Positions 2,193 through 53,594 of a stretch of DNA of 64,000 nucleotides are shown here, piece by piece (position 1 is the first letter of the stretch; each line of letters opens with the position of its first letter). The notes beneath the pieces were generated by a model, which saw nothing but the letters and a program-made list of their open reading frames with translations, was not told where the DNA came from and ran no database searches. The position numbers and the translations under genes are program-made. Source of the stretch: Vicugna vicugna. Taxonomy: Eukaryota. Location: positions 1,178,001-1,242,000 of the forward strand of contig MU058213.1 of assembly GCA_013265495.1 (NCBI GenBank). The letters are read 5' to 3'.

Positions 2193-2559
2193 AATAAAAG
2201 GCAGTTAGCATAAGTCTAGTCCAAAGTAGAAACCTGATACACAATATTTAGTATTTTCTTTTTAATTGATATGATGACTTCTCTACACAATGAATGTAAC
2301 CATTCACTGGTTTGTTTATTTGTCACATTGTGCTGGATGATGCTGAGGATAAGGTGGTAATAGACACAGCCCAAGCCTTTCTTTCATGCGTTTCACCATC
2401 CAGTGGGGAGACAGAACTTGTCCCCTGCTAGTGGTGACCCAGAGTAGCAGGGCAGGATCAGGGAGCCCAGGAAGGTGAAACAGAAAAAAATCCCATACAC
2501 ATAGAATGGCACAATGTACATTCATTTACCCACCAGCCAGATTCAGAACTTTCAAGATT

Positions 2560-3670
2560 TTGACACGAGAGGCAAAGGTAACAAAAGAAAAAGTAGACAA
2601 ATTGGACTTAATGAAAATTTTTAAAAATTTCTATGTATCAAAAGACACTACTAACAGAGTAAAAAGGAAACCCACAGAGTGGGAGGAAATATTTATAAAT
2701 CATATATCCAATAAGGGATTAATATCCCAAATATACAGGAAGCTCCCAAACTCAAGAAGAATAAAACCAATAGCCCAGTTCAAAACAGAGCAAAGACCTG
2801 AAAGGGCATTTCTCCAAAGAAGATATACAAATGGTCAATAAGCACATATAAAGATGTTCAACATCACTAATCATTAGGGAAATGCAAATCAAAACTACAA
2901 TGAGACACCACCTCACACCCATTAGGAGGACTGCTATCAAGGAAAAGAAAAACAACATGTGTTGGTGAGGATGTAGAGAAACTGAAAACTTGTGCACTAT
3001 TGGCAGGAATGTAAAATTGCATAACCACTGTGAAAAACAGTACGGTAGTTCTCCAAACAATTAAAAACAGAATTACCATATGATTCAGCAATTCTACTTC
3101 TGGGTATATACTCAAAAGAACTGAAAGCAGGAACTGGAAAATATATTTTTTCACTCATATTCATAGCAGTATTATTCACAATAGCTGTGGAAGCAACCCA
3201 AATGTCCATCAGTGAGTGAATAGGTAAGCAAAATGTAGTATGTATGTGTGTGTTTACACACACACACACACACACAGAGGAATATTATCCAGCCTTAAAA
3301 AGGAAAGAATTTCTGCAATATGAGATAACATGGATGAACCTTGAGAATATTATGCTAAGTTAAATAAGCCAGTCACAGAAAGATAAATATCATATGATTC
3401 CACTGAGAGTACTTTCAGTAGACGAAATCATAAAGACAGAGAGTATAGTGGTGGTTGCCAGGGGTTCGGGGAGGGGACAAGGGTGTTATTGTTTAATGGG
3501 CACAGGGTTTCAGTTTTATAAGATGAAAGAGTTATGGGGATAGATGATGGTGATGGCTGCACAACAGTGTGAATGTATTAAATATCATTGAACTATGCAC
3601 TTAAAAATGGTTAAGATGGCAAATTTTATATTATGTCTATTTTACCATAAATTTTAAAAAGAAGAAAAAT
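2560..3670 (+). mobile_element. LINE-1 (L1MA/L1MB-type) ORF2 C-terminus and 3'UTR, with internal (CA)n at ~3256-3276
   Basis: ORF 2506-2841 contains KEKVDKLDLMKIFKNFYVSKDTTNRVKRKPTEWEEIF; gggaaatgcaaatcaaaactacaatgaga; typical 3'UTR ending in an A tail. Confidence 0.92.
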
Positions 3671-3749: not shown

Positions 3750-4830
3750 GTGTAGAAGGAAAAACTTACAACAAATGTCATTTGATAAATGTAAAGGGAG
3801 TGGTGGTATAATTGGGAAATGACCATTTTGCAACTACCATGGGAAGGAATGGATGCTAAATCTAGAGGAGAAAGTTTGATGAGGAGCAGGGTATTTGCAT
3901 GGTCTCATTGTCTCCAAAGATTGTTGATTGGTTGCAAGGGTACAAATAATAAATATATAGTGAAGAAATAAACAATGACTGGGTGGTTGAAATTAACACC
4001 ACCCGGTAAATGCTGGCAGGTATCATGTGTCCCCAGATGTGACAGTCTGGGGAGAACACAAAATCACCAAATAATGATCTAGCTGGGGTTGCAAAGTTTG
4101 AATCTAATTCTGGTGAGGAAACACTACATAAACCAGTTGAAGAACATGGAAAATAATTGGCCTGCATTCTTCAAAAAGGCCAATATTATGAATGACAAAG
4201 ATAGACTGAGGAACTATTTCAGATTAAAGGAGACTAGAAACATGATATGATCTTATATGATGGAGGAAATGTTATTTGGACAAGTGACAAAGTTGGAACA
4301 TAGACTGTAGATTAGATATAATTATTTTACCAATATTAAATTTCTGAACTTTGTTCATTATATTGTGGTTATGTAAAAGAATATCCTTGTTCCTATGGTT
4401 ACAGCACAGAGAATTATATTCAATTTCTTGTAATAACATAATGTAAAAGAATTTGAAAAAATATTTATGTATGTATATGTATAACGGAATCACTTTGCTA
4501 TATACCTGAAATTAACATTGTAAATTAACTACTCTTGAATAAAAAACAAAATTTTAAAAATAAAAATAAAAAAAGAAAAGAAAACCCTTGTTCTTAGGAA
4601 ATACACATTGAAGAAGCATGATACTTGCCACCTGCTCTCAAATGGTTAAAAAAAAAAAGTAGTAAAATAGTGGCAGGGCCATGTGAGGGAGGGAGAGAAG
4701 AGAAGGAGAGAGAGAATGATAAAAAGAAATGTGGCAAATGTTGGAAAACTGATGAATCTGGGTACAGGGTACACAGAAGTTCTCTGTATTATTCTTACAG
4801 TGTTTCAGTACATAAAAGTTTAATGAAAGT
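3750..4830 (+). mobile_element. Old L1MC-type 3' end interrupted by a younger L1 tail (~4393-4575)
   Basis: Resembles 55900-56790. The inserted tail tacagcacagagaattatattcaa...aataaaaa is flanked by imperfect TSD aaaagaatatccttgttc / aaaagaaaacccttgttc. Confidence 0.72.
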
Positions 4831-20244: not shown

Positions 20245-21940
20245 TTAGAAGTTCCCTTCATGTAGGTTTATTGGTGGCAAGTTTGGTTTTTGTTTATCTG
20301 AAAACTTCTTCATTTCATGCGTCTTCTTGGAACATGGTTTTGCTGGATACAGGATGCTGGGTTGTCAGCTGTTTTCTCTCAAACTTGGGAAGTATTGTTT
20401 CACTGTCTACTGTTAGTCTGATTACTGCTCTTTTGTAGGTGACCTGCCTTTTCTCTGTGAAAAAAGATCTTTCCTTTGTTTCTGGTGTTCTGTAGATTTC
20501 ATTATGATACAATCAGGTTTAGACTTTTAAGAAATTTACCTTCCTTGGCATAGATGGTTCTCACTGTATCTGTGGATTCTTGTCTTTTGTTGTTCTGGAA
20601 AATCCTCAGCAATGATCTCTTTAAACATTGCCTTTCATCATTCCTTCTGAGACTCTGATTAGACATCTGCTAAACTTGTCCTTTATTCTATGTCTTTTCT
20701 CTCTCTGCTACATTCTGGTTAATTTCTTAAGCTTTCTCTTCTAGTTAGCCAGTTTTTCCTTCAGCTGTTTCTAATCTGTATTTAATCTCTTCATTGGGAT
20801 TTTAAATTTTTCAATATTTATATTTAAAGTTCTATATAGATCTTTTTCCAGTCAAACCCATCATTTTTTATTGTCTCTTTTTTTTCCACTTTTGTGATTC
20901 TAACTTTTATTTATTTAGACATTTCACATATTATTATTATATTTTAGTATTTAAAGTTTTAGGCCATTCTGGCCGTCATTCAAAAATCCAAAAATGACAA
21001 ATGCTGGAGAAGCTGTGGAGAAAGGGGAACCCTCCTACACTGCTGGTGGGAATGCAGTTTGGTGCAGCCACTATGGAAAACAGTGTGGAGATTCCTCAAA
21101 AGACTAGGAATAGACTTACCATATGACCCAGGAATCCCACTCCTGGGCTTGTACCCAGAAGGAAATCTACTTCAGGATGACACCTGCACCCCAATGTTCA
21201 TAGCAGCACTATTTACAATAGCCAAAACATGGAAACAGCCTAAATGTCCATCAACAGGTGACTGGATAAAGAAGAAGTGGTATATTTATACAATGGAATA
21301 CTACTCAGCCATAAAAACCGACAACATAATGCCATTTGCAGCAACATGGATGCTCCTGGAGAATGTCATTCTAAGTGAAGTAAGCCAGAAAGAGAAAGAA
21401 AAATACCATATGAGATCGCTCATATGTGGAATCTAAAAAACAAAAACAAACAAACAAACAAAAACAAAGCATAAATACAGGACAGAAATAGACTCATGGA
21501 CAGAGAATACAGACTTGTGGTTACCAGGGGGGTAGAGGGTGGGAAGGGATAGACTGGGATTTCAAAATTGTAGAATAGATAAACAAGATTACACTGTATA
21601 GCACAGGGAAATATACACAAAATGTTATGATAAATCACAGAGAAAAAAATGTGACAATGAGTGTGTATATGTCCATGAATGACTGAAAAATTGTGCTGAA
21701 CACTGGAATTTGACACAACATTGTAAAATGATTATAAATCAATAAAAAATGTTAAAAAAAATAAAGTTTTAGGCTGTTCTAATTCTGCTGTTTTTGCTGA
21801 TGCTCACTCATGGTGCCTTTTTTTTCTTACTGATTTTTGGTAATGAGGGCATATGTATTTGCTCTTAATCCCTTAAGGTCTAAAACTGGGTTACTTTCTT
21901 TCAGGGAAAATTTTTGTTTGTATCTGCATAAAGGGGGCAC
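20245..21940 (-). mobile_element. Old L1M fragment hosting a younger L1
   Basis: T-rich antisense L1 ORF1-like sequence on both sides of the 20965-21761 insertion. Confidence 0.65.
20965..21761 (+). mobile_element. Young 5'-truncated LINE-1 (open ORF2 C-terminus, 3'UTR, poly(A)) with 13-bp TSD
   Basis: Open frame ...[36 protein letters not shown]...YHMRSLICGI* (stop 21436); aataaa and A tail; taaagttttaggc at 20952-20964 and 21762-21774. Confidence 0.95.
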
Positions 21941-30300: not shown

Positions 30301-31860
30301 TAAAAAATAACAGTATTAAGCTATAACTCACATACTATGAAATTTACCCATATAAAATGTGCGATCAGTGGTTTTTAGTATATTTACAAGATTGTGCAAC
30401 CATCACCACTAATTCTAGAATATTTTAATGACTCACCAGAGAAACCCCGGACCCATTAGCAGTCACTCCCATTTCCTCTTTCCCTCAGGCACTGGCAGCC
30501 ACTAATCTATTTTCTTTTCCTATGGACTTGCCTATTCTGGACATTTCATATAAGTGGAATCATACAATATTTGGCCTTTTGTGACTGGCTTCTTTCACTT
30601 AGCATAGTATTTCCAAAGTTCACCCGTGTTGCAATCTTTTTATAGCTGAATAGCAGTTCAATACATGGACATACTCCACGTTGTTTATCCGTTTATCCAG
30701 CTGATGAACATCTGGCTTATTCCTACTTTTTGGCTGTTATGATTAATGCTGCTATAAACCGTAGTGTACAGACTTTTGTGTGAACATATGTTTTCAGTTC
30801 TTCTGGCTATATACCTACTGGTAGAATTGCTGGATCAAACGGTAACTCCATGAGTTAACAATTTGAGGAACTGCCAAATTATTTTCTAAAGAGTCTGTAC
30901 CTTTTTACATTCCCACCAGTAATGTATGAGGCTTCTAATTCCTCTATATCTTTGCCAATACTTGTTATTATCTCTTTTATTATAGCTATATTAGCGGGCA
31001 TGAAGTAGTATTTCCTTGTAGGTTAGATCTGCATTTCCCCAATGACTAATTGTACTGACCATCTTTGCACGTGCTTATCTGCCATACCATTTGTGTATCA
31101 TATTGGAATTTACTTAGATTATATTTAATTTTTTTCAATGATATGTTGCAGTTTTCAGTGTACAAGTCTTGCACTTCTTTTGTTAACTTTATTCCTAAGT
31201 ATTTTATTCTTTTTGATGTTAATGTAAACGGAATTTTCTTAATTTCGTTTTTAGATTGTTCATTGCTAGTGTATAGAAATACAATTGATTTTGGCATAAT
31301 GATTTTGTATCTTGCAAACTTGCTGAATTTTCTTATTAGTTCTATTAAGTTTTTGTAGATCTCAGGATTTTCAATATACAAGATCATGTCATCTGTGCTA
31401 GAGACAGTTTTACTTCTTCCTTTTCAGTCTGGATGCCTTTTCATTTCTTTTTCTTGCCTATTTGCCCTGGCTAGAACCTCCAGTACAATTCTGAATAGAA
31501 GTGATGATACATCCTTGTATTATCCCTGATCGTAGGAGGAAAGCATTCACTCTTTTGCTATTAAGTATAATGTTAGTTATGAGTTTTTTTCATAGATGTG
31601 TTTAATCAGGTTGAAGAAGTTCCCTTCTATTTCTGCTTTGTTGAGAGTTTTTATTTATTGAAAAGGTGTTGAATTTTGTCAAGTGCTTTTTCTGCATCTA
31701 TTAAGATGAGCATGTGGATTTTTTTCCTTGATACATTAGTGTTGTATATTACATTAATTATATTCAGAAGTCAAATCAACCTTGCATTGTTAAGATAAAT
31801 CCCCCTCTATCATGGTGCATCATCCTTTCTGTATGTTGCTGAGCTTGGTTTGCTGGTGTT
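30300..31860 (-). mobile_element. LINE-1 (L1MB-type) 3' end plus ORF2 RT fragment
   Basis: ORF 31046-31387(-) MILYIENP...KSIVFLYTSNEQ...KRIKYLGIKLTKEVQDLYTEN is L1 RT sequence just after the catalytic DD motif; typical antisense 3'UTR at 30300-31060. Confidence 0.92.
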
Positions 31861-32674: not shown

Positions 32675-33520
32675 ATTTTTATCATACTTTGTTGAGGCAT
32701 AATTTATACATAGTAAAATTCACAGATTTTAAGTGTGCAGATTAACCAGTCTTTTCAAATGCATACACTCCTGTAACCCACACTCCCATCATGAAACTGG
32801 ACATTTCTATCCCTCTAGAAAGTTCTCTTGTGCCCCTCCCCTAATCAACACCCCAAGAAGTAACCACTGCTATGACTTCTATCACCAAAGACGAGTTTTA
32901 CCTATTTTAGTGCTTCACATAAATGGAGTCGTGCAGTTTGCTCTTTTTTAGGTGTATGGTTTCTTTCACTCAGCAAAAATGCTGTATCTGTATTTTGTCT
33001 TTTCTAGTGCTGAGCACTGTTCCTTTGTGTGGTTATACCATGGCTTGTTAGCCATTCTCCTTTGTTGGATACTTGGCATATTTCCAGTCTGGGGTTAATT
33101 TTAATAAAGATAATATGAATGTTTATCTCCAAAGCTTTCTGTAGACAGGTTTTTGAAAATATTCTATTTTGACATTATTTCAAACTTACATAGCAGGGAA
33201 GGTATAGCTCAAGTGGCAGAGCGCATGTAAGCATCCACAAGGTCCTGGGTTCAATCCCCAGTACCTCCTCTAAAAATAAATAAATACACCTAACTACAAC
33301 CCCCTCCAAAAAATGGCATATAAACTTACAGAAAAGTTGCAAGAATAGTATAAAGAATTCTTGTCTACCCATTAGTCAGACTCTACAATGTTTAACATTT
33401 TGCTACATTTGCTTTATCATTTTGTGTGTACATGTTTACATTATTATTTTTTCCCCTGAACCTTCAGAGAACAGGTTATATACATCATGCCCATTTTTCT
33501 CTGAATACTTTCACATATTA
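32675..33520 (-). mobile_element. Old L1ME-type 3' fragments
   Basis: ttgaggcataatttatacatagtaaaattcacagattttaagtgt...; acagaaaagttgcaagaatagt. Confidence 0.7.
33191..33321 (+). mobile_element. tRNA-derived SINE (Vic-1-like) inserted in L1ME
   Basis: ggtatagctcaagtggcagagcgcatg...ggtcctgggttcaatccccagtacctcc; aaacttaca at 33182-33190 and 33322-33330. Confidence 0.9.
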
Positions 33521-33654
33521 TACTCATAAGTAAGCTTTGGGTCTCTCAGTGGGGTGGTGGGAGCTATGCTGAGCTCTGCCTCAAGGATGATTAATACCAA
33601 CTTTATTTCAATAGCGTGTAAAAACTTTGCTCCTCGATAGGTCTGTTCTCACCT

Positions 33655-33790
33655 ACGATGGTCAGTTTTATGTGTCTGATCTCCAGTTAGGCAAACACTA
33701 ACCTAGATGTTGCTGTGAAGGTATTTGGTGGATGTGATTACTGTTCATAATTTGACGTTCAGTAGAAGACATTATCCCACACTGATGTGC
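33655..33790 (+). mobile_element. MLT2-like LTR 5' fragment
   Basis: gatggtcagttttatgtgtc...ctagatgttgctgtgaaggtatt...gatgtgatta. Confidence 0.6.
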
Positions 33791-34325
33791 ATAGATGTGC
33801 AGATTCACAGGAATATTTCAGAGATTTTCAGAGCCCGTTATGGATATCTCATTCCCCAGCTAGTACTCAGCCCAGCAGGAATTCCAAACCCAGTTTCCCT
33901 TTTCCTCGAGCCAGGCCTCTTAATCAGTCTCCATACTTTTCTCAAAACACAGGAAGATCCTAATTTCTCAGCCATCCCAGAGCTCCACACACATACAACA
34001 CACACATGCACACGCACACACACGCGTGCGTGCAAGTTATTTCATTGGAGGGGACTTTTAAAGGATATCCTCTCTAATAATAAATTTCGTTTCTTCCGAG
34101 TGTCAATCAGGTTCATATAAATGGCTCACGTCTACAAATAGAATGTCCCACTTCCATTTATAAACAACGCCCTCCTCCACTAGAGAATACCTCTTTCTTT
34201 TTTCCCACTTAATTAATCTTTCTTTAAATTGTGCCACTGGCTTGATTTCTCAAGCCTTTCGTGCTCTCAGCCTCACCCTTCCTCCAAAGAAAACCCACGA
34301 GCTACTGACTGGGGATTGCAGAGAG

Positions 34326-34410
34326 AATAAAAACAAAAGAAGGCAAGAATTGTCTAAATTTAAAGTGCTGGAAAATCCAACATTTTATTTACTACATTTT
34401 GGTGACTACA
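34326..34410 (-). terminator. Distal cleavage/polyadenylation signal
   Basis: mRNA sense: TGTA (34410-34407), TGTA (34396-34393), AATAAA (34389-34384), a CA ~17 nt downstream (~34366), then U-rich ttcttgccttcttttgtttttatt. Confidence 0.72.
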
Positions 34411-37139
34411 TAAATGCTGAAACATTTTAACACTGAAAAGCATGATGGCATCATCACTTGCTTTTTTTTCTTTTTTTCTTTTTTGCTTAGCAAACACAGC
34501 AGATGATATTGCACGGCATAAAGTGAGAACAGTAGCGAAGCTTAAAAAAAAAATGAAAGAAACCTTAATGCAGTACAGGAGATACTCATAAACAAACCAG
34601 GATAATGCCTAATGCATTACACTTTTTGTTGCTACACACAAAAATACAGAAGAAGCATTGGACAGAGAGAAAGAGAGAGAGACAAAATATTAGCAAACAA
34701 CCATAACTGGGTACAATAATCATTTAGTCTGAAATGTAGATGCAACACAGAAACTATCACTGCTTTCTAATTGACAAAGAAAATGACAGCAACATTTGTC
34801 TTTTATCAAAAGTCTTCTAAGCCCCTCATGGTTAGGTTTTAAAATGCATTAATTACGTATTTACCTTTTTTTTTCATTGCTAAGGAAGAACTCCCTCTGC
34901 TCTTGGAAGATTTTCTACTCTACTGATCTTTTTTTAATTTAATTTTTTTTTTTTACCTGATGATTGTCTTAGGCACCCTCCTTACATAATAAACCATCAA
35001 GCTAACTTGAACAGGGAAACTGAGTCACACTCAAACAATAGCTAAGGTCAAAGGTGGACTGAAAATAGAAGAGGGGGAGGGACAGGTCTAAGTGAGTGAC
35101 AGGTGGGCTGACTTCAGAAGGGACAAGAAACACAGGGAGATACGAACACAACTACCCAAACAAGTGGAAGACAATGTTTTACAGTTTATTTTGTTAAAAA
35201 ATACTTGTCACTTGGTTCAGATGGCAAATCTAAAATGAGCCCACAATGATTATGTAATAAATGCAGAACATACCACAAAAAGAAACATTGAGACAGAAAA
35301 TATGACCTTGTGAATACAACTCTGTTCAGCGTTTCATTGCCGATGGTAAAAGTCTCCTGCCTCAACCATTTTCCTGGGCTTTCTATAACTCACTGCACAG
35401 CATTTGTATTAAAAACAAGTAATTAGTCAATGCTTACCAACAGAGCACTGAATGATCCTGCAACTCAGAGCAGATTTATTGCCCTATTAAAATATATAAC
35501 GAGTATAAAAATGTTTCTAAGAAAATGTAACATTTGACCCAAAGTCTAAGCCCTCCCTTTCTTTCCCCACCCCAAACACCCCTGCAAAATAAAGTCAGGT
35601 AAGATTCTTGTATTGGAAGAAAAAGTATTTACATCTATGGATTTATACCATGGAATTGAAGCAAGTTATTTTTGCAAAAAAAGCAAAAGAGTGGGCACCG
35701 GGTCTTCTGAAGATGCCGCTAGTCGGCTGAGAATCCAGCGTGTGTGCTGATCTGCAGCAGGGCTGAGAATCTGAACAGCCTCCACGTAGGGGGCCTGCGG
35801 CAGGGACCATCTTTAGCATGGACAAGAAAACTAGTGGGAAGATCGAGTGAGAGGAGACAAACCCAAATAGGTCTGGAGTTTATTCATCCCTGGGACACTG
35901 ACATTTGAGAATTCTTGCAGTCTGGGTCAGGGTCAGGGGTTTGGGGAAAGCAGGGGGTAATTGTGGGTGGTAGATTCCAGGGAGAAAACGGGAGGAATAT
36001 GTGGATTTGAAATATTTTTCTTAAACTTGATTGCTAATTGGGGCTCAGCAGTCAGGTTTTGCTTCTTCCACGGGTGGGCTAGAAGGGCAGCTGCCCCTCA
36101 GCTGCCCCTCCACCTTGACTTTCTCTGTAAAGTCATGAGACTGTGAGACTCTTTCCTTAGCTCTGCAAAAGGAGCTATGTCTCCGTGCCCCATCCCCTGC
36201 CTTGAAGCAGTTCAGAAACTTGGTGAAACTTAAGAGGATTTCCAAATTCAAGTTAGCTTGTCTCTGAGTTTTTACGCTTTTTACTTCTCATACCCGGGCG
36301 AATGATTTAAAAAAAAAAAAGGAGTAAATTATCTCACAAATGCCGGTGCTTTGAAACATTAAACAAATCTTAAATTCTTCGGAATTTCAGGTCTAACCTG
36401 CAAAGTAATCTTTTCTTTAAAAAAGAAAACACATAATAAATTAAAGGAAGAACACGAATAATGCCTTCTCTCTGACAAAAAGGACTATCTTGAAACACCC
36501 ATTTTGGCATGTACAGATTTTTTGAGGGGGGAACCTGGCAGTGTTCACAACACACATTGAAGTGCCTGCTAAGAAAAGCTAAAGATACACCCTGCAGTTA
36601 AGAGAAGCTCTTGCCTTCAGCTTGTCTTAGCATCGAGAACAAAAAAGATTGTAACATAAAGCTTTGGCCATTTCCATTCTACTATATACACTTTAAAAAC
36701 TACACAGTCATAAATTAATGCAGTGATTAAATAAGCTCATATAAAATGTAATTTAAATTAAAAAAATCACAGCACATTACAGAGAAAAATAGGAACCAGT
36801 TTCACAAAAAAGAGATTATATATACTTTTTTACCCTGTGGAAACAAATTTACTACGAAACACAAAAACTTCATAAGTAACCATCAGAACGAAAATCATTT
36901 CTTATTCCATTCTTGCATTTTTTTTTACACAACCCTTAACCCACCTGGGGAACATTTCCAGAAATTAAGTCTTCCTTGAGCAACAGAGCAGTTCTGCCAA
37001 GAAAATAAACCCCAAACCGAAGTAGGGGGTGGGGGTGGGGGTGGGGGACATCCCAAACATACAAACTACAAAATAAATAAGAATTATAAAGTTTTTTTTT
37101 AAAAGTAACCTTAACAATTATCAAACTAGTAAGTTCTGC

Positions 37140-37184
37140 CTTATCACATAGACTCTCTATACAACATAACCCTAAAACTTTATT
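37140..37184 (-). terminator. Candidate internal poly(A) signal
   Basis: AATAAA at 37184-37179 followed by GU-rich gttttagggttatgttgtatag. Confidence 0.4.
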
Positions 37185-37288
37185 ACTATGAGGTATTTGG
37201 AGGAATTGGTAAAAGTGACGCACGGCCTGCCTGGTGGAGGGTCTCGGTGAAGTGGGGGGGAACTTCGAGAGGGAAGGAGGAGGAGGAG

Positions 37289-38324
37289 CTTTGGTTTATC
37301 AGCAAGAAATTGGGAAACGAAAGTCATCCTTTGGTATCAAAGAAAGTTTCATTGCATGGTTGCACGGAAAAAGCACCACGGTGAATAATTATTCCTTTTT
37401 TTTTTTTCATTAGTGGCCTTTCTAAGAGGCTGAGGTATTCAAAGAGTATAAGGTGAGAGAGGTCAACAGCGGTTTAACACTTTGGTTCAAGCAAGGCACT
37501 CGTCCTAGGAGTTTACAAAGTTTGCAACATGTTTGCCTAGAGATTTACAAGTAGAACTAGCAGTAATAAGAGTAGTCTTTCCTAATGTTGTTGTTATCAT
37601 TATCGTATCGTTATTATTAAGAATGAAGACAAGTTTACACACTGAGTGAAGAGTGAGGAGGGGAGAGGAGGTGGGAGGGGGGAAGGGGCGGAGTTCCCTC
37701 TGCAGACCAAGGCCGTGCATGAAAATATCTTTGGTATTCTTTGGTATCATCAATGTGATTAAAATCACCAATGGAAATCGAGTGAGGTAGCGTCTTTGGT
37801 TCACACTATAAATAGTAGATCTTTACACTTTTTTTTTTTTTTTTTACACGTGGAAGTAGCTATTTCTTACCTTCTGCTTCGTTGTCCTTACTATTTAGGA
37901 AATAGTTACCAAATGTACTGTAAAGCTAACCACACCACAAGAATAATCCAGAAGGCCAATTGCGTCTCAAAACAGCCTCTGGTGTTTGAATGCACCCTAA
38001 ACAACTAGATAGGAAAAGGGAGAAGTGCTTTCTCTTTGTTTGCTAAATGCATAGTTTTCATCCTTTATGTACAAAGAAGGGAGGACCTTTCTTAGGGAAA
38101 ATGTCTTTATAGCTCATGTGAAAATGTCCTAGGACTCTTTGGTATAGCAAAGTTTGCATTTAACTTGCAAAGACTGGTCATTCACCTGGGGTAGCAATGG
38201 GAGTGACATGAGTCCAAAAGCGCTTTTACTTTTTTTCCTGCATAATTAACTATGCTTTTGGGGGGGCAGAGTGAGTGACTTGTTCAGTTAGAACTTCTAA
38301 ATTTCCCCACACAGTTTCTTTGGT
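37289..38324 (-). promoter_or_regulatory. miR-9-5p seed-site cluster (8 sites in ~1 kb)
   Basis: Plus-strand TCTTTGGT (mRNA ACCAAAGA) at 37728, 37738, 37793, 38136, 38317; CTTTGGT at 37289, 37329, 37480. Confidence 0.8.
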
Positions 38325-39028
38325 TTAGGTGGGATTATCTATTCCAGCTGCATCCCGGGACTGGAATACTTAGTTCCTGACATGCAGAATTCTTTTACCT
38401 GAACATTTACTGATGTCTGGGCTTTTGGGGGGGGGGTCCAGATGTCACACCTCCCACTCTTTGTCTTGGCCCCCTTTCAGGGAAGCTTCCGGTTGGTTGT
38501 GAGAGGACCTGAATGATTTATGGCCAAAAGCAGTCTAACTTCCATTCTACTGAAAAAAACCCAAAACATGCTTTGTGAAGTGCAGTTTTGGAATAAACAA
38601 GCATACAAAGAAAAGAGTGAGATCTCTTCAGGTGAATTTTGCTAAAGGATTGAGAAATGATGGGTGAACAAATGCACGGGATCTTCTCCATTGAGTGCGG
38701 TACGTTAAGAAACCTGAGCCATAAATTAATGCTGGACTAAATAAGGGTGGAAACATTCTCTATGTGCCAAGTCAGAAGCAATAAAGAATCAGTCATACAT
38801 GATGCAACACCTGTATTGCTTGTGAGAAGCTGAGTTTGTCCATTAGGATTTCTAAAAAGCAAAGGTTGTGAGTATGCTTAAACAGTCAAGTAAAAAAATT
38901 GCTTTTCAGGCTCTGATTTGTGCATCTGTTTATGAGAAAATATATCTCTAGGCCCTGAAATTGCATAATGGGTGCAAATTCAATGCTGGTATGAAAATTA
39001 TCTTTGGTGTTAGCAAATAGGATCACTG

Positions 39029-39034
39029 TTTATT
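39029..39034 (-). terminator. Candidate proximal poly(A) hexamer
   Basis: AATAAA on the minus strand, ~2.7 kb past the stop. Confidence 0.35.
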
Positions 39035-40353
39035 TGTCCAAAAAAACCATTATGGTGGGAATATTAAAAATGTAATAATATCCTTTGAGAGTGTGTCTAC
39101 ACAGTACCAAAAATAACTGGTTGAAAATGGAAATCACAGTTGGATTAATCTGAGGGGGTTATATAGGAAAAACAAAGCAAAAGACATGGTTGTCTAAATT
39201 CAGCTTTTGTTTTTCCTAGGGTATTGAATTGGGTAAGATTGTGTGTAGACACAGCTTGAATTTCCCTGCATTTAAAATTCTTACGTTTTAAATAAATAAG
39301 GCTTTCCTCCCTCCTAAATTACAAATACATTATACAGCTGTACCCCGGCCCCCTCCACTCCTGGAGAGAGAGAAAAAGTTCATCAGTTTTTTCCTTTTCA
39401 TTTATGTCATTGACAAGATTACATTTTCAGCAAATCTCAAAGGGTAGCCATTTAAATGGTCTCTTTTAATAGCTGAACTATAATTGTGCCATATTTAGAA
39501 GGGAAAATTTTAAGCTGGAATTTGGGGTGAGATTAAAAAAAATACTAAGACAAAATGTGTCAAGGCAAATTGCGCTATTTCATCAAAGGAGAAGTATGTC
39601 TTGGTTTCTGTTTTTCATTCCACAGTGGACGTGAAGGAGATACAGAAGGCTTGGGGGCTTAGCCTCCTCTCTCCAAGTGCCTGCCTCTTCTAGACCTGGA
39701 CAAGATGCTGATATTTGACTCTTAGGAGTTAAGTTTTGTGTCAAAATGGTTTCATTTCATCGTTTGCATTTTAATGAATCTCAATAAACAACTTGCTGTT
39801 AACATTTAATTTTATATTTCTACTTAGCTGTGGTGATCAGCTAAGAGTACCTGATTCTTTACCTAATAGTACAAAAGGCATGAGTTACAGTTCAATTGAA
39901 TTCAGAGAGAATTTTTCTGGGAATCCAGTGATTCACTTGGGTACTAGTAGCACAACTGTATTATCTTTTTTTTTGGCCTTGATTTCTATAGCCCTGGTTA
40001 AGTGATTTGGAAAAATAGAATTTTAAAATTTTGTATTTGAAAGTTCAGGTCTAGTTTTTAATCTGTCCCTGTTAGAGAGTGGACTCTGTGTTATAAAACT
40101 TCCAGCTTAACTGCAGCAGCAAGAAAGAATGTAGTATGCTTCGGAGGCTACGCTCAGTGAAGTAAAGAGCTTAATCCCTATGGAATCCAAGGTCTTGTCT
40201 TCCACTGGAACTTTTGCTTTTTCTATGCAGTTCCACCATGTCTCCACTTAACCTGCTATTTTTTTTTAATTGGTGTCCAAGTCACAAAATGTCTGGGATT
40301 GGCAATAAAATCAGTCTGATTACATTTTCAGGATGATGACAAATACTGGATAG

Positions 40354-40359
40354 TTTATT
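40354..40359 (-). terminator. Candidate proximal poly(A) hexamer
   Basis: AATAAA on the minus strand, ~1.35 kb past the stop. Confidence 0.3.
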
Positions 40360-41237
40360 TTAAAAATAATGTTGGTCTGCTTATTCTGTGTGTGTGTCAA
40401 GTGTTTTAAACAGGTATTTGGTGTCAAAGGCATAAAGCAGATTTAAGTCAAATTAACCTAAGTATGGAGTCCTTTATGCAGTGGACTTTTACTAAAAAGC
40501 ATTACTTCGAACAAATTTTGTAATTTAGTTACCTGCCCTGTGAAACTTCATTTTCTAAGTTTACAAGGGGGTCCTGCCTCGGAAGAACCCTCAGGTTTTC
40601 TTAGCTATGGATAGATTATGAACTTATGTCTCTATGTTTACTTAAGTGACATCTGTAGATTCCGAAAAGGGGTGTGCCATCTGGATGTACACGTCTGCTG
40701 CATCGACCTCTCTGTGACGATACTAATTGCTTCCCTGAAGCTACATTCTTTCTTGCCAGTTCTGAAAACTAATATTTCAAATGCTCCAAGAGTCATAAAT
40801 AATAGTCATGATTCTATGTGGCATGTGTATTACCGCTAGGTCAGTTCATACGTATAACTTTACATAGTATCTTGTGTAAAAATAGCTTTGGTTATTAAAA
40901 TCATTGCAATAAAATACCTGCACTATAATATTAAGTGTGTTCTTTGGTACCTAGGTGATTTTCCTTTTTTAATGGATGGACTCTTGTTTCATTTCTTAAA
41001 AAATATCTGAACATTCCTTAACAAACAAAGAGAATGCACTGGTTTAGGTGTCATTCAAATTTCTCTGCTGGATTTGAATCTGCACATAGGTTGCGGGCCT
41101 GGCAGGTTCAAACACTAGGCTAGATGAGCAAAATCACACTGCTAATCCATTGAACTCAGACAACCCCGCACCATGTTGGTTGTACTCCTACAACACAACC
41201 CTTCCTGAAGACCAGCCCTGCCTAAGTCCCTAACCAC

Positions 41238-41286
41238 TGGTGGTGGTGGTGGTGGTGGTGGTGGTGTGTGTGTGTGTGTGTGTGTG
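41238..41286. repeat. Compound microsatellite (TGG)9(TG)11 in the proximal 3'UTR
   Basis: Read directly from the sequence. Confidence 0.95.
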
Positions 41287-41701
41287 TTTGCACGCACGCA
41301 CCCACACACAGTACTGAGACACCATACACCTTCGTGGCGTGGTGGAACGGATGAGAAAGTCGATCTTAAAAATGTCCACCCAATGGCTCAAAATTACTAT
41401 GCTCCAAACCACGAAACAGCCGAGCACAGCGAGGATGATCATGGACTGAAGGTGTACGATCCAGTGGTGCTTTCCCGCTCATAATTTTTCTTGCCAAGTC
41501 GTCGCCCGGCTGAAGTGTGTGTCTCCAAACAAAGTCAGAATGCAGGTGAGCTAAGTCTTTGGTTTCTTTGGACTATAAATAACACTTTGTTTTCTTCAAA
41601 TATTTCTAAGTATAAACCTGCTATCTTGAGGTCCTGGTCTTTAAAATTTTTTTTTTTAATTTAAAGCTTTTCCACCGAGGTTTCAGTTCGTGGTTATTTC
41701 T

Positions 41702-41994
41702 TCATGCTTTGGTACAAGTGCTTGATGAAGACGATGAGTTGCCGGAATTGGAGCTGCCCTCGTCCTGCCACTTGTCCAGACTCCTCCTCCTCGCGTTCAT
41801 GAAGAAGTTGCTGACAGTGCTCAGCTCCAAGCCCAGCTGCTGGGAAATGGTGATTTGCAATTCTTTGGATGGACGCTTATTTTCCTTGAATATTGCATGG
41901 AGAGTTCGACGCTGGACATCTGTGAAGACCAACCTGGGCTTTTTGGGTGTGTTGCCTCTATCCTTCCCGTGTTCTTGCTCTTTCCTTTTGCATG
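41702..41994 (-). CDS. ONECUT1: ONECUT1/HNF6 final coding exon (linker, homeodomain, C-terminus), phase-1 start
   Basis: Minus-strand translation (A)CKRKEQEHGKDRGNTPKKPRLVFTDVQRRTLHAIFKENKRPSKELQITISQQLGLELSTVSNFFMNARRRSLDKWQDEGSSNSGNSSSSSSTCTKA*, the ONECUT1 C-terminus, with the ONECUT-type F48/M50 helix 3 (NFFMNARRR). TGA at 41704-41702. 293 nt = 2 nt + 97 codons. Preceded by acceptor ttgcag. Confidence 0.97.
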
Positions 41995-42022
41995 CTGCAA
42001 AGAAACACAGAGGGTATTAGAA
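41995..42022 (-). other. ONECUT1: 3' splice acceptor with branch point and polypyrimidine tract
   Basis: Minus strand reads ttCTAATaccctctgtgtttctttgcAG|CATGCAAA; AG at 41996-41995. Confidence 0.92.
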
Positions 42023-43189
42023 CAGACTGCCTGGAAGAATTGAGAGCAGAAAGGCACAGCCCGTAAAATTTGTTTGGCATTCCTCTTGGTCACTTTCTGT
42101 CTGCTGACCTCTGATTTTAGTGCCGTCCATTCTAGGCTGGGAGGGAAGTGTAACAAAAGCATGGAGAATGAGGAGGAGGTGGAGTTCTGCCCTCCTGCCT
42201 TTTTGTATTCCAGGTTCTCAATTCCTTACTAGACGGTCCACCAGCTCTGGCTCGATGCAGCCTCTGTGCTTTCCCCAGGTAGCCCTCCTCTTCTGCCCGC
42301 CCCTACTTTTCATTCCTAGCTGTTCCGCGTCTTGAATTTCAGAGTTCCCCTAAGGCCTTAGGTGCCCATTAGCACAAATTAGCTCAGCAATCAGAGCAGC
42401 TGAAAAGCTAATGGCTAAAAGCTGAAAAAGCCTCCAGTCTGCAGAATCCAATCTAGGGATCTCCCAGGTTTTTAATCATGGGCTACTAGTAAAAAATATT
42501 TTGAGTGTTACACTCTTTACTTCTTTATAAGGGACATGCGTGTGTTACTGTACCACTGTATTACGGGCGTTATAAAGCATACACAAAATAGAGACATTTG
42601 TAAAGGTGTAAAATAAAATGAATAGACATAGAAATTCTCTACCTTAGGTGCATCAGCTTGCCCAGGTCCCAGAGTGCATTCACCTCACTCCACGGGACTA
42701 CAGGTCCAATATATCAGGAAATATAAGAGTAAGAATTTCAGAATGGACATGAGTGTAGCCCTCAGTCACAAAAGAGAGATTTTTAGGCCAGTCAAGTCTT
42801 CTGGTACCTTTTATAAGATATCCCATAGATCACTGGCTATGTCCTATCCCCACCAGGATGGAAAGCATCAACATAATGGGAAAGATTTATTAAATGTCCA
42901 GCTCCCTCAGAGCACTGAGCTATATATACTGAAATAGGTGAGAGTCCCCAGATGGAGCCCCTCCCCTCAGGGACCTACAGCCTTCACTGGCAAATAGATT
43001 AAGTCCCTGGGAAAAAAAAAAGCTGACTAGACTGAAGTCAAGTCTACAAGCCCATGTAGACACAGCTTTATATAATACTGATGCACAAGGCTGATTGATT
43101 CATTCACTTACATTCAAAAATGAATATAACACAAGCTTTTCTCTTAAACAGGTTAGTGGTTACATAAGCAAATAACTGTAAGAGTATAA

Positions 43190-51320: not shown

Positions 51321-53594
51321 AGAGGTGGGACCCAGGTATTCCTCAGGCACAGACCGGGAGGACATCAGGGAATCACACCAGCTCTCACTCCCCATGCTCC
51401 CTCAAACTGCCCTTTCTGTGTGATTCTAGACTCTCATCTCATCTCAGTTCTCCCACAAACTCCATCTTCTCTCGTTTGTTCTGTGCTCCGTCTGGCACAG
51501 GCTGAACCTGAGACAGAACAGTGAGCTGAGAATCCTGCTGAATGAAAGAATTTTCATACCCCTGTGATACTTGCCTCGTCCTCTCGCTGGCCATTCATGC
51601 CCACACGCACACATTTCCTAAGCACAGCTCCAAGCTTTCTGAGACTCTCGAAAAGACACAGACCACCTGACCCTTAACTCCATAAAGCTCTTTCCCTGCA
51701 TCACAGCTTCCAAAGAACCAGTGGAAAGAAAATCTGCTGCCTCACACCTGCTCCTTCAGTTAGTAAGGAAAGGTCATGTGACTCTGTTCTGAAAGGCTGG
51801 TTTAGAAATTCTGATTTTTAAATTCCTAAACTTCTGTTAATGCCTGGTCCTTTGGGTTTTTATTGCATCAGTATCTCTCATCTAAAAAAGAGCCCTTCAA
51901 TAGTTTGGGCCTTAATAATTAGAAATGCATGATATCGATGCCATAGTTATGATGTTGATTCTGCAAAACAGTCAAAACAAATGGCAGACCTGATGAATCA
52001 CATGCTTATTATGCATTATTACCTCATACAGGCCTATTGTGAATTGTAAGTCTTAGTATATTGATCCTGTTTCTTTAATTAATAGCCATATATAATACTT
52101 TATAATAGTCACAGCAATTGAAAGTTATAAAATGGAACTTCTTCAAAAATAACCTACCATTTTGACTTTTTGCTAAGTCATCAGACGTTTTCCACAGTTA
52201 ATTTCAAATTAGTGGTTTTCCTTGTTTGCGTTTCTGGAAAGTTGTCTGTAGAGTCAATTGCAAATGCCATTCTCCCAAAGACATGTGTACTATACAACTG
52301 GCCCCACAAGGGCCCAGAAAGCCTGAGAGGAAAGCCCTTTGTGGCTACTCTGTCAAGATGTTCAAGGACCTTGACCCTCTGACCCCAACCACCTTTCCTA
52401 TCTCACTACCCACAACTGCCCACCCATCATCCACACTGAGCCACAATGCTCTGAAGTCAGTCCTAAATACACTGTGAGTGAATGTTCACACCTCTGTTCC
52501 TTTGCTCAAGCTATTTCCTCACCCAGAATGCCCTTCCTTCTCTTTCTTTTCCATACAAAAGTTCCCTTGTGTCATCAAGGCCCAGCTCAGGCATCTCATT
52601 TTCTATTAGGCCTTCTCCTTCCCCTCTCTCATCTGGGGAGGATTGTCTCCTGTGTCCTTAGAGCTCCCCAGATAATTAGTTATTACCTATCCATCTCTCT
52701 TACTAGACAACAAGTTCCATAAGAGTAGATCATAGGTTATTTCTTTGGCAGATCCAGCATCCTTGTTGGATAAATAAGTTGGATGTGGCTGCCTAGACAA
52801 TGGAGACATCTAAGACACAAATCCTTATCTTTTGAAAATGGGTACGTATAATGAAGTCCCATGAGATCTCCTAAACCCTTTCACTGGGTGATTATTTTGA
52901 AGCAGTTTAATGGCACTGTGGGGGATATTTCTGAATTGTCATTGAGAAGGTAGTGAAGGGGGGTGGCACTGGGGCCCTGGTAAAGGAAGCTGGTATTGTC
53001 ACCACTCCTGTGCTTGAGTCAGAAGGTGGTTCAGGGCCAGGTAGGGATAAGGCTGGAGTAACACAGCTGGAAGAGCAGAAGGTGTGGAGGGGCTGGATTT
53101 GAGCTGGGGCATTGAAATGAGCTGGGAATAGGACCACCCAGATGAGGTGCCCAGGCAGGGGGCACTGGGTATCAGAAGGCAGAGAGATACTGTCTGCATC
53201 TGTTCTTGTTAAGTCTGGTTTAATCGGTCCATATATGTCTTAGTCAAACAGAGTTGATAAGGATCTGATTTGTGGATAATGTCAGCAAATATCCACAAAG
53301 AGTCTATATGGTAGAAACCATAACAATAAATTAATGAGATGATCCCAGGGGAAATGTTCTTGGAGAAATTAAGTTAAAATTCAAAGGATGAAGGGCTCAG
53401 ATGAAGAATGCCTTATAAATAAGGTGAAACCAAACACCATTTTGTGTCTTTTTTTCTGGCAACTGCCAGGTCTTGGACTTTTTGTACAACCTCTGGCTTT
53501 TGGTGCCCTGGACTCCTGGGTAAGAGGTGTCATTCTCTCTCCCTGGGTTTCAGGGCTGGCCTGAATTCTGCAGTGGGGGAGGCTGGAAGGAACC

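Follow-up and report, generated by a model that had tools for sequence, protein, structure and literature searches.

A probable multi-site miR-9-5p response region in the presumed long 3'UTR of Vicugna vicugna ONECUT1

The sequence downstream of the ONECUT1 stop codon in Vicugna vicugna is very probably a multi-site miR-9-5p response region, lying within what is presumably a long 3'UTR. In the window, i.e., the whole 64,000-nt stretch of DNA analyzed here, this 3'UTR contains 13 miR-9-5p sites in sense orientation: eight 8mers, four 7mer-m8 sites and one 7mer-A1. A multi-site miR-9 array in ONECUT1 is already known, and the number of sites has itself been published, since TargetScan gives 12 conserved and two poorly conserved miR-9 sites for mouse OC1, as quoted in a preprint (bioRxiv 10.64898/2026.10.02.755877). 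The known array shares with the present one the gene, the microRNA, a near-equal number of sites (12 + 2 in mouse and 13 here, compared by count) and the proposed role in closing early neuronal fates; the mammal is different. Three features go beyond what was found in print: extensive 3' pairing at the 38317 site, a miR-9-3p 8mer within a 23-nt block, and an AATAAA at 39029 that could cut off nine of the 13 sites.

The gene is ONECUT1/HNF6. Its translated last exon matches HNF-6 of PDB structure 2d5v, with residues 1-76 identical and a score of 161 bits, against 130 for ONECUT2; the homeodomain encoded is that of HNF-6 and not that of ONECUT2. The coding part of this exon occupies 41702-41994 on the minus strand, with acceptor TTGCAG just 5' of 41994, and ends in CTKA-stop (stop codon at 41702-41704). 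The presumed 3'UTR, about 7.3 kb long, extends over 34370-41701 on the same strand, its 3' end being placed by the best-formed poly(A) signal. The forward primer of the published human OC1 reporter falls at 41701-41678 (20/24 match), and the best match of the reverse primer, near 39154, is no better than in shuffled sequences (P 0.37).

The 8mers, which read TCTTTGGT on the plus strand, start at 37728, 37738, 37793, 38136, 38317, 39001, 40941 and 41556, and CTTTGGT without the A opposite nucleotide 1 starts at 37289, 37329, 37480 and 40886, and also at 41707, within the last codons. The first-pass annotation had listed these 12 UTR sites and the coding-end site, with every coordinate and the strand correct; it lacked two 7mer-A1 sites, one separated by 1 nt from the 8mer at 41556 (41565-41571) and another at 41862, within the coding exon. 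Its observation that the opposite strand is devoid of copies was borne out (0 in 34370-41701), and copies elsewhere are indeed scattered: in the rest of the window, beyond this region and the coding exon, there are two plus-strand CTTTGGT (14432 and 46773) and five plus-strand ACCAAAG. The expected count of 0.45 that it gave is too low, as dinucleotide shuffling of the 7332-nt region yields 1.11 for ACCAAAG and 0.33 for ACCAAAGA. The enrichment that it proposed to check against such shuffles is nonetheless strong; none of 2000 shuffles attained 12 ACCAAAG or eight ACCAAAGA (Poisson P ~3e-9 each). Among all 16,384 7-mers, ACCAAAG is the top non-microsatellite word under Markov models of orders 1-3, with Bonferroni-corrected P of 1e-5 to 3e-4.

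Mature miR-9-5p, taken as printed in PMC7294468, has the seed that the first-pass annotation had assigned to it, and ONECUT1 is a known target, as it had stated. The sites have the properties of a canonical target array, with perfect matches to miRNA nucleotides 2-8 on the sense strand and an A opposite nucleotide 1 in eight of 12. Constraint is seen at positions 2-8 in 12/12 sites, and little of it past position 10. Could the matches instead be an artefact, with their origin in a family of repeats, in sequence of low complexity or in some unrelated motif of DNA or RNA? In favour of this, one pair consists of a 10-nt unit duplicated exactly in tandem, and an A-rich UTR would suit a motif containing AAA. 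Against this stand the seed-like pattern of constraint and the persistence of the enrichment under third-order Markov correction, and an Rfam search of the 64-kb window gave zero matches at the gathering score; ranked by E-value over 33000-43000, matches inside the UTR are weak or repeat-driven. A repeat origin was rejected, as no long repeat links the sites, and the direct-repeat families are 16-32 nt in length and mostly due to chance. We regard such an artefact as hardly credible.

Nine of the 13 sites are arranged in four close groups, with start-to-start distances of 9, 10, 40, 55 and 56 nt (P ~0.003 for so many short gaps). Closest to the stop codon, the 7mer-A1 at 41565-41571 abuts the 8mer at 41556-41563. 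Further along the mRNA, an AU-rich segment (40886-40948) holds an 8mer at 40941-40948 and a 7mer-m8 at 40886-40892, 56 nt apart and predicted to be accessible (89th-91st percentile). The 8mer at 39001-39008 lies 20 nt downstream of an internal AATAAA, the 8mer at 38317-38324 is accompanied by a 3' pairing element, and the 8mer at 38136-38143 is isolated. Two nucleotides past the 8mer at 37793-37800 there is what we take to be a let-7 8mer match (37783-37790), and then tandem 8mers at 37738-37745 and 37728-37735, 2 nt between them, make up a 10-nt unit repeated exactly (37728-37747). The 7mer-m8 at 37480-37486 has, 6 nt upstream, what is presumably a miR-124 7mer-m8 match (37493-37499), and the array ends with two 7mer-m8 sites at 37329-37335 and 37289-37295, 40 nt apart. 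Three of these distal sites are predicted to be poorly accessible, namely 37329 (6th percentile) and 37289 and 37480 (36th-38th). let-7 and miR-124 7mer-m8 matches occur once each in the UTR, i.e., without enrichment, and the three miR-9-3p seed matches, with 0.99 expected, are not significantly enriched either (P 0.08).

The first-pass annotation had suggested switch-like cooperative repression. The close grouping agrees with the cooperative part of this suggestion, but the remaining gaps between sites measure 151-1884 nt, four sites are solitary, and Denzler et al. saw no cooperativity at 255 or 997 nt, the canonical cooperative range being 8 to about 60 nt (PMC5101187). The switch-like part of the suggestion is conjectural. 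Like the cooperative sites in that study, three miR-9 pairs here are spaced 40-56 nt start-to-start, and the array also has heterologous neighbours; unlike them, two pairs abut, with gaps of 1-2 nt, and four sites stand alone. Cooperativity at particular pairs would follow from spacing of this kind. The array of the paralog ONECUT2, with 13-14 conserved sites (PMC10356556, PMC10914762), offers a close parallel, as its sites 7 and 8, two 8mers 2 nt apart, are laid out like 37728/37738 and give its strongest PAR-CLIP signal; unlike ONECUT1, ONECUT2 has a UTR about twice as long (14.6 kb), for which a competing endogenous RNA (ceRNA) role has been claimed.

The best reading is ordinary multi-site repression with local cooperativity from the close groups. 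AGO loaded with miR-9-5p would bind the 13 canonical seed sites on ONECUT1 mRNA, most of them acting independently, so that their effects would multiply, and the four close groups, together with the adjoining let-7, miR-124 and miR-9-3p sites, may give local cooperativity; the combined outcome would be destabilized mRNA and reduced translation. With increasing miR-9 in neural progenitors and neurons, ONECUT1 may be among the first transcripts silenced, and the window of early-born fates would close; in liver, with miR-9 nearly absent, the array would be idle. In E18.5 mouse, miR-9-5p is found at 4-12 CPM in liver and at more than 97,000 CPM in brain, where it accounts for 10-15% of miRNA reads. 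So understood, the array is a textbook example of site number setting the order in which targets are silenced as one microRNA rises; it already serves this purpose in a 2026 preprint about the temporal patterning of neurons, and another mammal adds little.

Enrichment, strand bias and gene identity speak for multi-site repression, as do these liver and brain levels, the TargetScan count for mouse OC1, which comes close to the 13 sites here, and the proximal pair shared with a distant homolog (see below). So does published repression and derepression: a reporter with the human OC1 3'UTR is repressed by miR-9, which also lowers endogenous OC1 in 293T cells (PMC10914762), Onecut1 is derepressed in the retina of miR-9-2 knockout mice (PMC13060328), and OC1 is a miR-9 target in chick motor neurons, according to what a review (PMC4284387) relays of Luxenhofer 2014. 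Against it count the lack of any lowering of OC1 mRNA or protein by miR-9 in mouse Neuro-2a cells, where mouse OC1 is said to have no sites, and the few PAR-CLIP reads on OC1 (both PMC10914762), the reported resilience of ONECUT2 to miR-9 despite 26 sites (PMC10356556), the poorly accessible sites and the internal poly(A) hexamers. AGO chimeras in the cattle CLEAR-CLIP supplements include none of onecut1, onecut2 and miR-9-5p, those in the Huh-7.5 file of Moore et al. show no miR-9 in the ONECUT1 rows listed (2 of 3), and our literature search found no paper dissecting the nine distal sites individually.

Homologs were sought in a set of 16 loci, of which six were left out for having no stop after a full homeodomain or little sequence beyond it. 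The distant homolog L001, compared over the first 763 nt past its stop, a span that takes in the coding-end site and the abutting pair next to the stop, has the same pair (2526 and 2544) after a common 9-nt motif in a UTR that is otherwise poorly alignable. It also has the site in the last codons (41707-41713; 2371 in L001), which, being coding, is weak evidence and not independent of protein constraint. A 23-nt block, 41660-41682, is identical in L001 (2418-2440) and contains a miR-9-3p 8mer (41661-41668) with offset-0 pairing to miR-9-3p nucleotides 14-18. Five of the nine other retained loci are without any miR-9 site. The remaining four, two of them clearly related, have four 8mers versus 0.65 expected and nine CCAAAGA versus 2.42, and in these loci there is no enrichment of ACCAAAG by itself (P 0.2); at most, this hints at a miR-9 array of possibly pan-animal distribution. 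For the distal cluster, conservation is taken from the TargetScan count that the preprint quotes.

How much of the array is transcribed depends on where the mRNA ends. All 13 sites lie between the stop codon and the best-formed poly(A) signals, which are AATAAA at 34384-34389, preceded by two UGUA and followed by a U-rich element (U 0.57), and AATAAA at 35185-35190, a candidate distal site whose downstream element is GU-rich (G+U 0.77) and which also retains all 13. The nine distal sites would be part of V. vicugna ONECUT1 mRNA, and shorter UTR annotations probably end before the array does, as the first-pass annotation had proposed. At least three internal A(A/U)UAAA hexamers precede the distal nine, and the greater part of the regulation would escape short annotations or short reporter fragments. 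Different UTR ends, and the distal sites missed in this way, may explain why papers credit mouse OC1 with either no sites or 12 conserved ones.

These internal signals also raise the prospect that alternative polyadenylation sets miR-9 sensitivity, some cells making a largely miR-9-resistant mRNA, a tentative idea that is compatible with multi-site repression and would modify it. The AATAAA at 39029-39034, 2.67 kb past the stop, sits 20 nt ahead of the first of the nine distal sites; cleavage there, or at the AATAAA at 40354, would keep four of 13 sites, and earlier ends fewer. The conflict in print over mouse OC1, the null result in Neuro-2a and a paper that terms OC1 a short-UTR gene all fit such isoforms. 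The internal signals are weak, however, with 0-1 UGUA (one at 39029) and a downstream U fraction of 0.31, compared to the signals at 34384 and 35185. Moreover, seven sequencing runs from four studies contain 0.46-0.48 of the words of a 9.5-kb sequence, more than the 0.31 possible for an end at 39029. As there is no record of these seven being RNA, this result is only suggestive. Of the 24 runs listed, 13, among them the two that are recorded as RNA, contain only 0.15-0.20 of the words and give no evidence on expression. A different proposal, made by the first-pass annotation, is that the UTR is a miR-9 sink, sequestering miR-9 and freeing its other targets, as claimed for ONECUT2 (PMC10356556). 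The many 8mers would suit this role, and cooperative spacing, seen in several of them, raises competing potency about 2-fold. Even so, a competitor must approach total target abundance, and a ceRNA effect of a single transcript was found unlikely even where sites cooperate (PMC5101187); with miR-9-5p at about 100,000-150,000 CPM in brain and liver having almost none to absorb, we consider a sink improbable.

The 38317 site differs from the rest of the array in its 3' pairing. Average 3'-supplementary pairing across the array is not above background (mean -14.55 vs -13.80 kcal/mol, P 0.16), as expected of seed-driven sites. At 38317, the 8mer pairs with miR-9-5p nucleotides 1-9, and the element at 38343-38353 adds 11 contiguous pairs, two of them G:U, to nucleotides 11-21 beyond a target loop of 17 nt (offset +16). 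The duplex has -23.2 kcal/mol in total, and its 3' half, at -16.7 kcal/mol, ranks first within the UTR and exceeds all 20,776 overlapping and all 1732 non-overlapping control windows. Shuffled miRNA halves equalled this energy, taken as the best of 13, in two of 2000 trials, and shuffled flanks in none of 400. Significance varies with the metric, from P 0.001 to 0.02; the run length with wobble gives ~0.02, and the Watson-Crick run alone is unremarkable (P 0.37).

Combining a seed match with extensive pairing near the 3' end of the miRNA, this site resembles triggers of target-directed microRNA degradation (TDMD) such as Cyrano for miR-7 and Nrep for miR-29b (PMC13041716), and might itself trigger degradation of miR-9-5p, placing ONECUT1 mRNA and miR-9 in a double-negative loop. 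A trigger would be expected to have a small central loop or offset between its two helices; unlike those named, this site has an offset of +16, a 17-nt loop and two G:U pairs. The published trigger-finding pipeline penalizes offsets above 3 and scores no points for G:U, let-7a affinity drops beyond offset +4, and the bridge is longer than the cited range of 1-15 nt. Nor does miR-9-5p appear to rise on ZSWIM8 loss in E18.5 mouse tissues, where a small population of early cells might go unnoticed in bulk values: in Table S1 of Shi et al., miR-9-5p and -3p occur in the levels sheet only, are absent from the ZSWIM8-sensitive sheets, and have nearly equal paired values in brain and eye. Such a trigger is thus very unlikely. 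Equally far-fetched is the fuller version, in which a long-bridge site frees the miRNA 3' end and makes miR-9-5p decay in early neurons with high ONECUT1, the use of the poly(A) signal at 39029 gating it together with the eight other distal sites; if true, ONECUT1 mRNA and miR-9 would destroy each other in a timer gated by isoform, and not stand in a one-way target relationship. A milder variant, with the 3' element only raising affinity, is doubtful but less so. The 38317 site offers a natural test of AGO 3' pairing over a bridge longer than any measured so far.

The 3' end of ONECUT1/HNF6 lies on the minus strand of the window, with a last coding exon that starts at 41994, ends in the stop codon at 41702-41704 and matches solved HNF-6 identically over 76 residues. 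All twelve miR-9-5p seed matches listed for the 3'UTR in the first-pass annotation were found in their places (eight 8mers and four 7mer-m8 sites), and its claim of strand specificity holds, with 0 sites on the opposite strand. An additional 7mer-A1 at 41565 raises the complement downstream of the stop to 13 canonical miR-9-5p sites. The match claimed for the last codons is also present at 41707; this 7mer-m8 (41707-41713, minus strand) is formed by the codons for the conserved C-terminal CTKA, in the window and in the homolog locus L001 alike, which may be explained by protein constraint alone.

The array is far beyond what composition would produce. When 34370-41701 was shuffled 2000 times with dinucleotides preserved, it gave on average 1.11 7mer-m8 and 0.33 8mer matches, and none of the 2000 attained 12 or 8, respectively. 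ACCAAAG is the top enriched 7-mer once microsatellites are set aside, and is Bonferroni-significant under Markov orders 1 to 3. The sites are constrained over miRNA positions 2-8; 8 of 12 carry an A opposite position 1, and past position 10 there is little constraint. Averaged over the array, 3' pairing is at background, and therefore the seeds do the work. Neither a repeat family nor a structured RNA accounts for the array. A (TGG)n then (GT)n microsatellite with a short inverted arm, located in the proximal UTR at 41238-41310, is the cause of spurious mir-297 and mir-466 Rfam hits.

The array is real, strong, correctly read at first pass, and already known; the number of ONECUT1 miR-9 sites is published. 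Canonical multi-site repression of ONECUT1 by miR-9-5p is the best-supported reading, and very probably the right one. According to PMC10914762, miR-9 represses a human ONECUT1 3'UTR reporter and endogenous ONECUT1 in 293T cells; the same paper states that mouse ONECUT1 is without sites and reports no effect in Neuro-2a. Onecut1 is reported to be up in miR-9-2 knockout retina by PMC13060328, which also names Onecut factors as top predicted targets. A miR-9 sink, which the first pass had also proposed, is unlikely: with E18.5 levels of about 98,000-147,000 CPM in brain and 4-12 CPM in liver (PMC10620050, Table S1), miR-9-5p is either much too plentiful to be titrated or hardly present. A ceRNA role has been claimed for the ONECUT2 UTR (PMC10356556). 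The available section of PMC7961372 holds nothing further on the sites, and the main text of PMC13369745 does not mention Onecut. Our literature search, which covered few subscription papers and no TargetScan pages and so is no proof of novelty, found nothing published on UTR isoforms of ONECUT1, on the pairing at 38317, or on the conserved miR-9-3p block. What interest the array still has comes from its distal cluster, from a poly(A) gate that may exist, and from a single long-bridge site of unusual form.

Four miR-9-5p sites lie within 820 nt past the stop and nine at 2.7-4.4 kb; 9 of the 12 m8 sites fall inside 1713 nt (P 0.005). Five adjacent pairs are separated, start to start, by 9, 10, 40, 55 and 56 nt (P 0.003 for five such gaps), and the remaining gaps are 151 to 1884 nt. 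The miR-9 8mer at 37793 has a let-7 8mer match 2 nt away (37783-37800, minus strand), and the miR-9 7mer at 37480 has a miR-124 7mer match at a distance of 6 nt (37480-37499, minus strand); 7mer-m8 counts for neither miRNA are enriched in the ONECUT1 UTR. Two further let-7 7mer-A1 matches are seen near 37431 and 37189, and TACCTCA occurs 3 times vs 0.5 expected (P 0.014, uncorrected). The 8mers at 37728 and 37738 have 2 nt between them, as do the 8mers at sites 7 and 8 of ONECUT2 (PMC10914762). The pairs with spacings of 40-56 nt fall inside the cooperative range of 8 to about 60 nt (PMC5101187) and may plausibly cooperate; for sites separated by hundreds of bases this is not plausible. A switch-like dose response may reasonably be hypothesized.

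How much of the array enters the mRNA would depend on poly(A) choice. The two best-formed candidate signals, at 35185 and 34384, both retain 13 of 13 sites, and either of the weaker AATAAA signals at 40354 and 39029 would retain 4. In seven runs from four studies, 0.46-0.48 of sampled words of 33000-42500 were present, and an mRNA ending at 39029 explains at most 0.31; as the runs are not recorded as RNA, these shares only hint at a long ONECUT1 transcript. One of the seven comes from a sample of which two other runs gave 0.00.

In the long-bridge site (38317-38353, minus strand), the 8mer pairs miR-9-5p nt 1-9, nt 10 is skipped opposite a 17-nt target loop, and nt 11-21 are paired with two G:U (11 bp, offset +16). 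In energy it is exceptional: no 3'-half match elsewhere in the UTR is as good, and it beats 20,776 of 20,776 overlapping and 1732 of 1732 non-overlapping control windows. As best of 13, its energy was attained in 2 of 2000 shuffles of the miRNA half and in 0 of 400 shuffles of the flanks. Judged by the length of the paired run, P is about 0.02 when wobble pairs count; the Watson-Crick run taken by itself is ordinary (P 0.37). An alternative register nearer the seed would pair nt 9-14 (6 Watson-Crick pairs). Such pairing might make the site a trigger of miR-9 degradation, which we consider highly improbable: its offset of +16 greatly exceeds both the +3 tolerated without penalty (PMC13041716) and the optimum of +4 for let-7a (PMC8940178), and miR-9 was found neither in the ZSWIM8-sensitive sheets seen of PMC10620050 nor in the main text of PMC10499020. 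An affinity role for the 3' pairing is somewhat less remote, yet doubtful.

One scan of metagenome contigs yielded 16 Onecut-like loci, and comparison with them reaches 2 of the 13 UTR sites, the other 11 being beyond every locus. L001, whose protein is 80% identical and has the same CTKA-stop end, extends 763 nt past the stop and, judging from its protein, seems to be ONECUT1 of a vertebrate other than a mammal. Most of its UTR cannot be aligned with the window; kept are the site at the coding end, the 7mer-A1 with the 8mer after it, and a 23-nt block (23/23; 41660-41682, minus strand; 2418-2440 in L001). This block carries a miR-9-3p 8mer supplemented, at offset 0, by pairing to nt 14-18, so the first 170 nt of the ONECUT1 UTR may be targeted by both miR-9 arms. 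Further miR-9-3p matches are a 7mer at L001 2670 and those at 37921 and 36657 in the window. Nine more distant loci also continue beyond a stop; five of them lack sites, and the excess in the other four is not independent. The several matches in some of these invertebrate-like loci hint at older miR-9 targeting. L006 has three 8mers vs 0.11 expected. Matches downstream of coding sequence are at 2129, 2172 and 2614 in L006, 1357 and 2667 in L007, and 7191, 7309 and 7892 in L015. In L002, a second homeodomain-like segment (about 4630-4800, some 430-600 nt past the first stop, 70% identical to the window exon by blastn) is possibly a tandem duplicate.

Elsewhere in the window, open frames at 20963-21436 (plus strand), 31046-31423 (minus strand) and 2479-3284 presumably resemble LINE-1 ORF2 fragments. 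A tRNA-like match at 33198-33269 (plus strand; Rfam RF00005, 34.8 bits, E 0.00024), missing from the whole-window gathering scan, is probably a tRNA-derived SINE head. Similar short segments at about 51330-51400 and 52375-52440, on opposite strands and both partly translating as TTFPISLPTTAHP, suggest that a piece of the intron was duplicated locally in inverted orientation.
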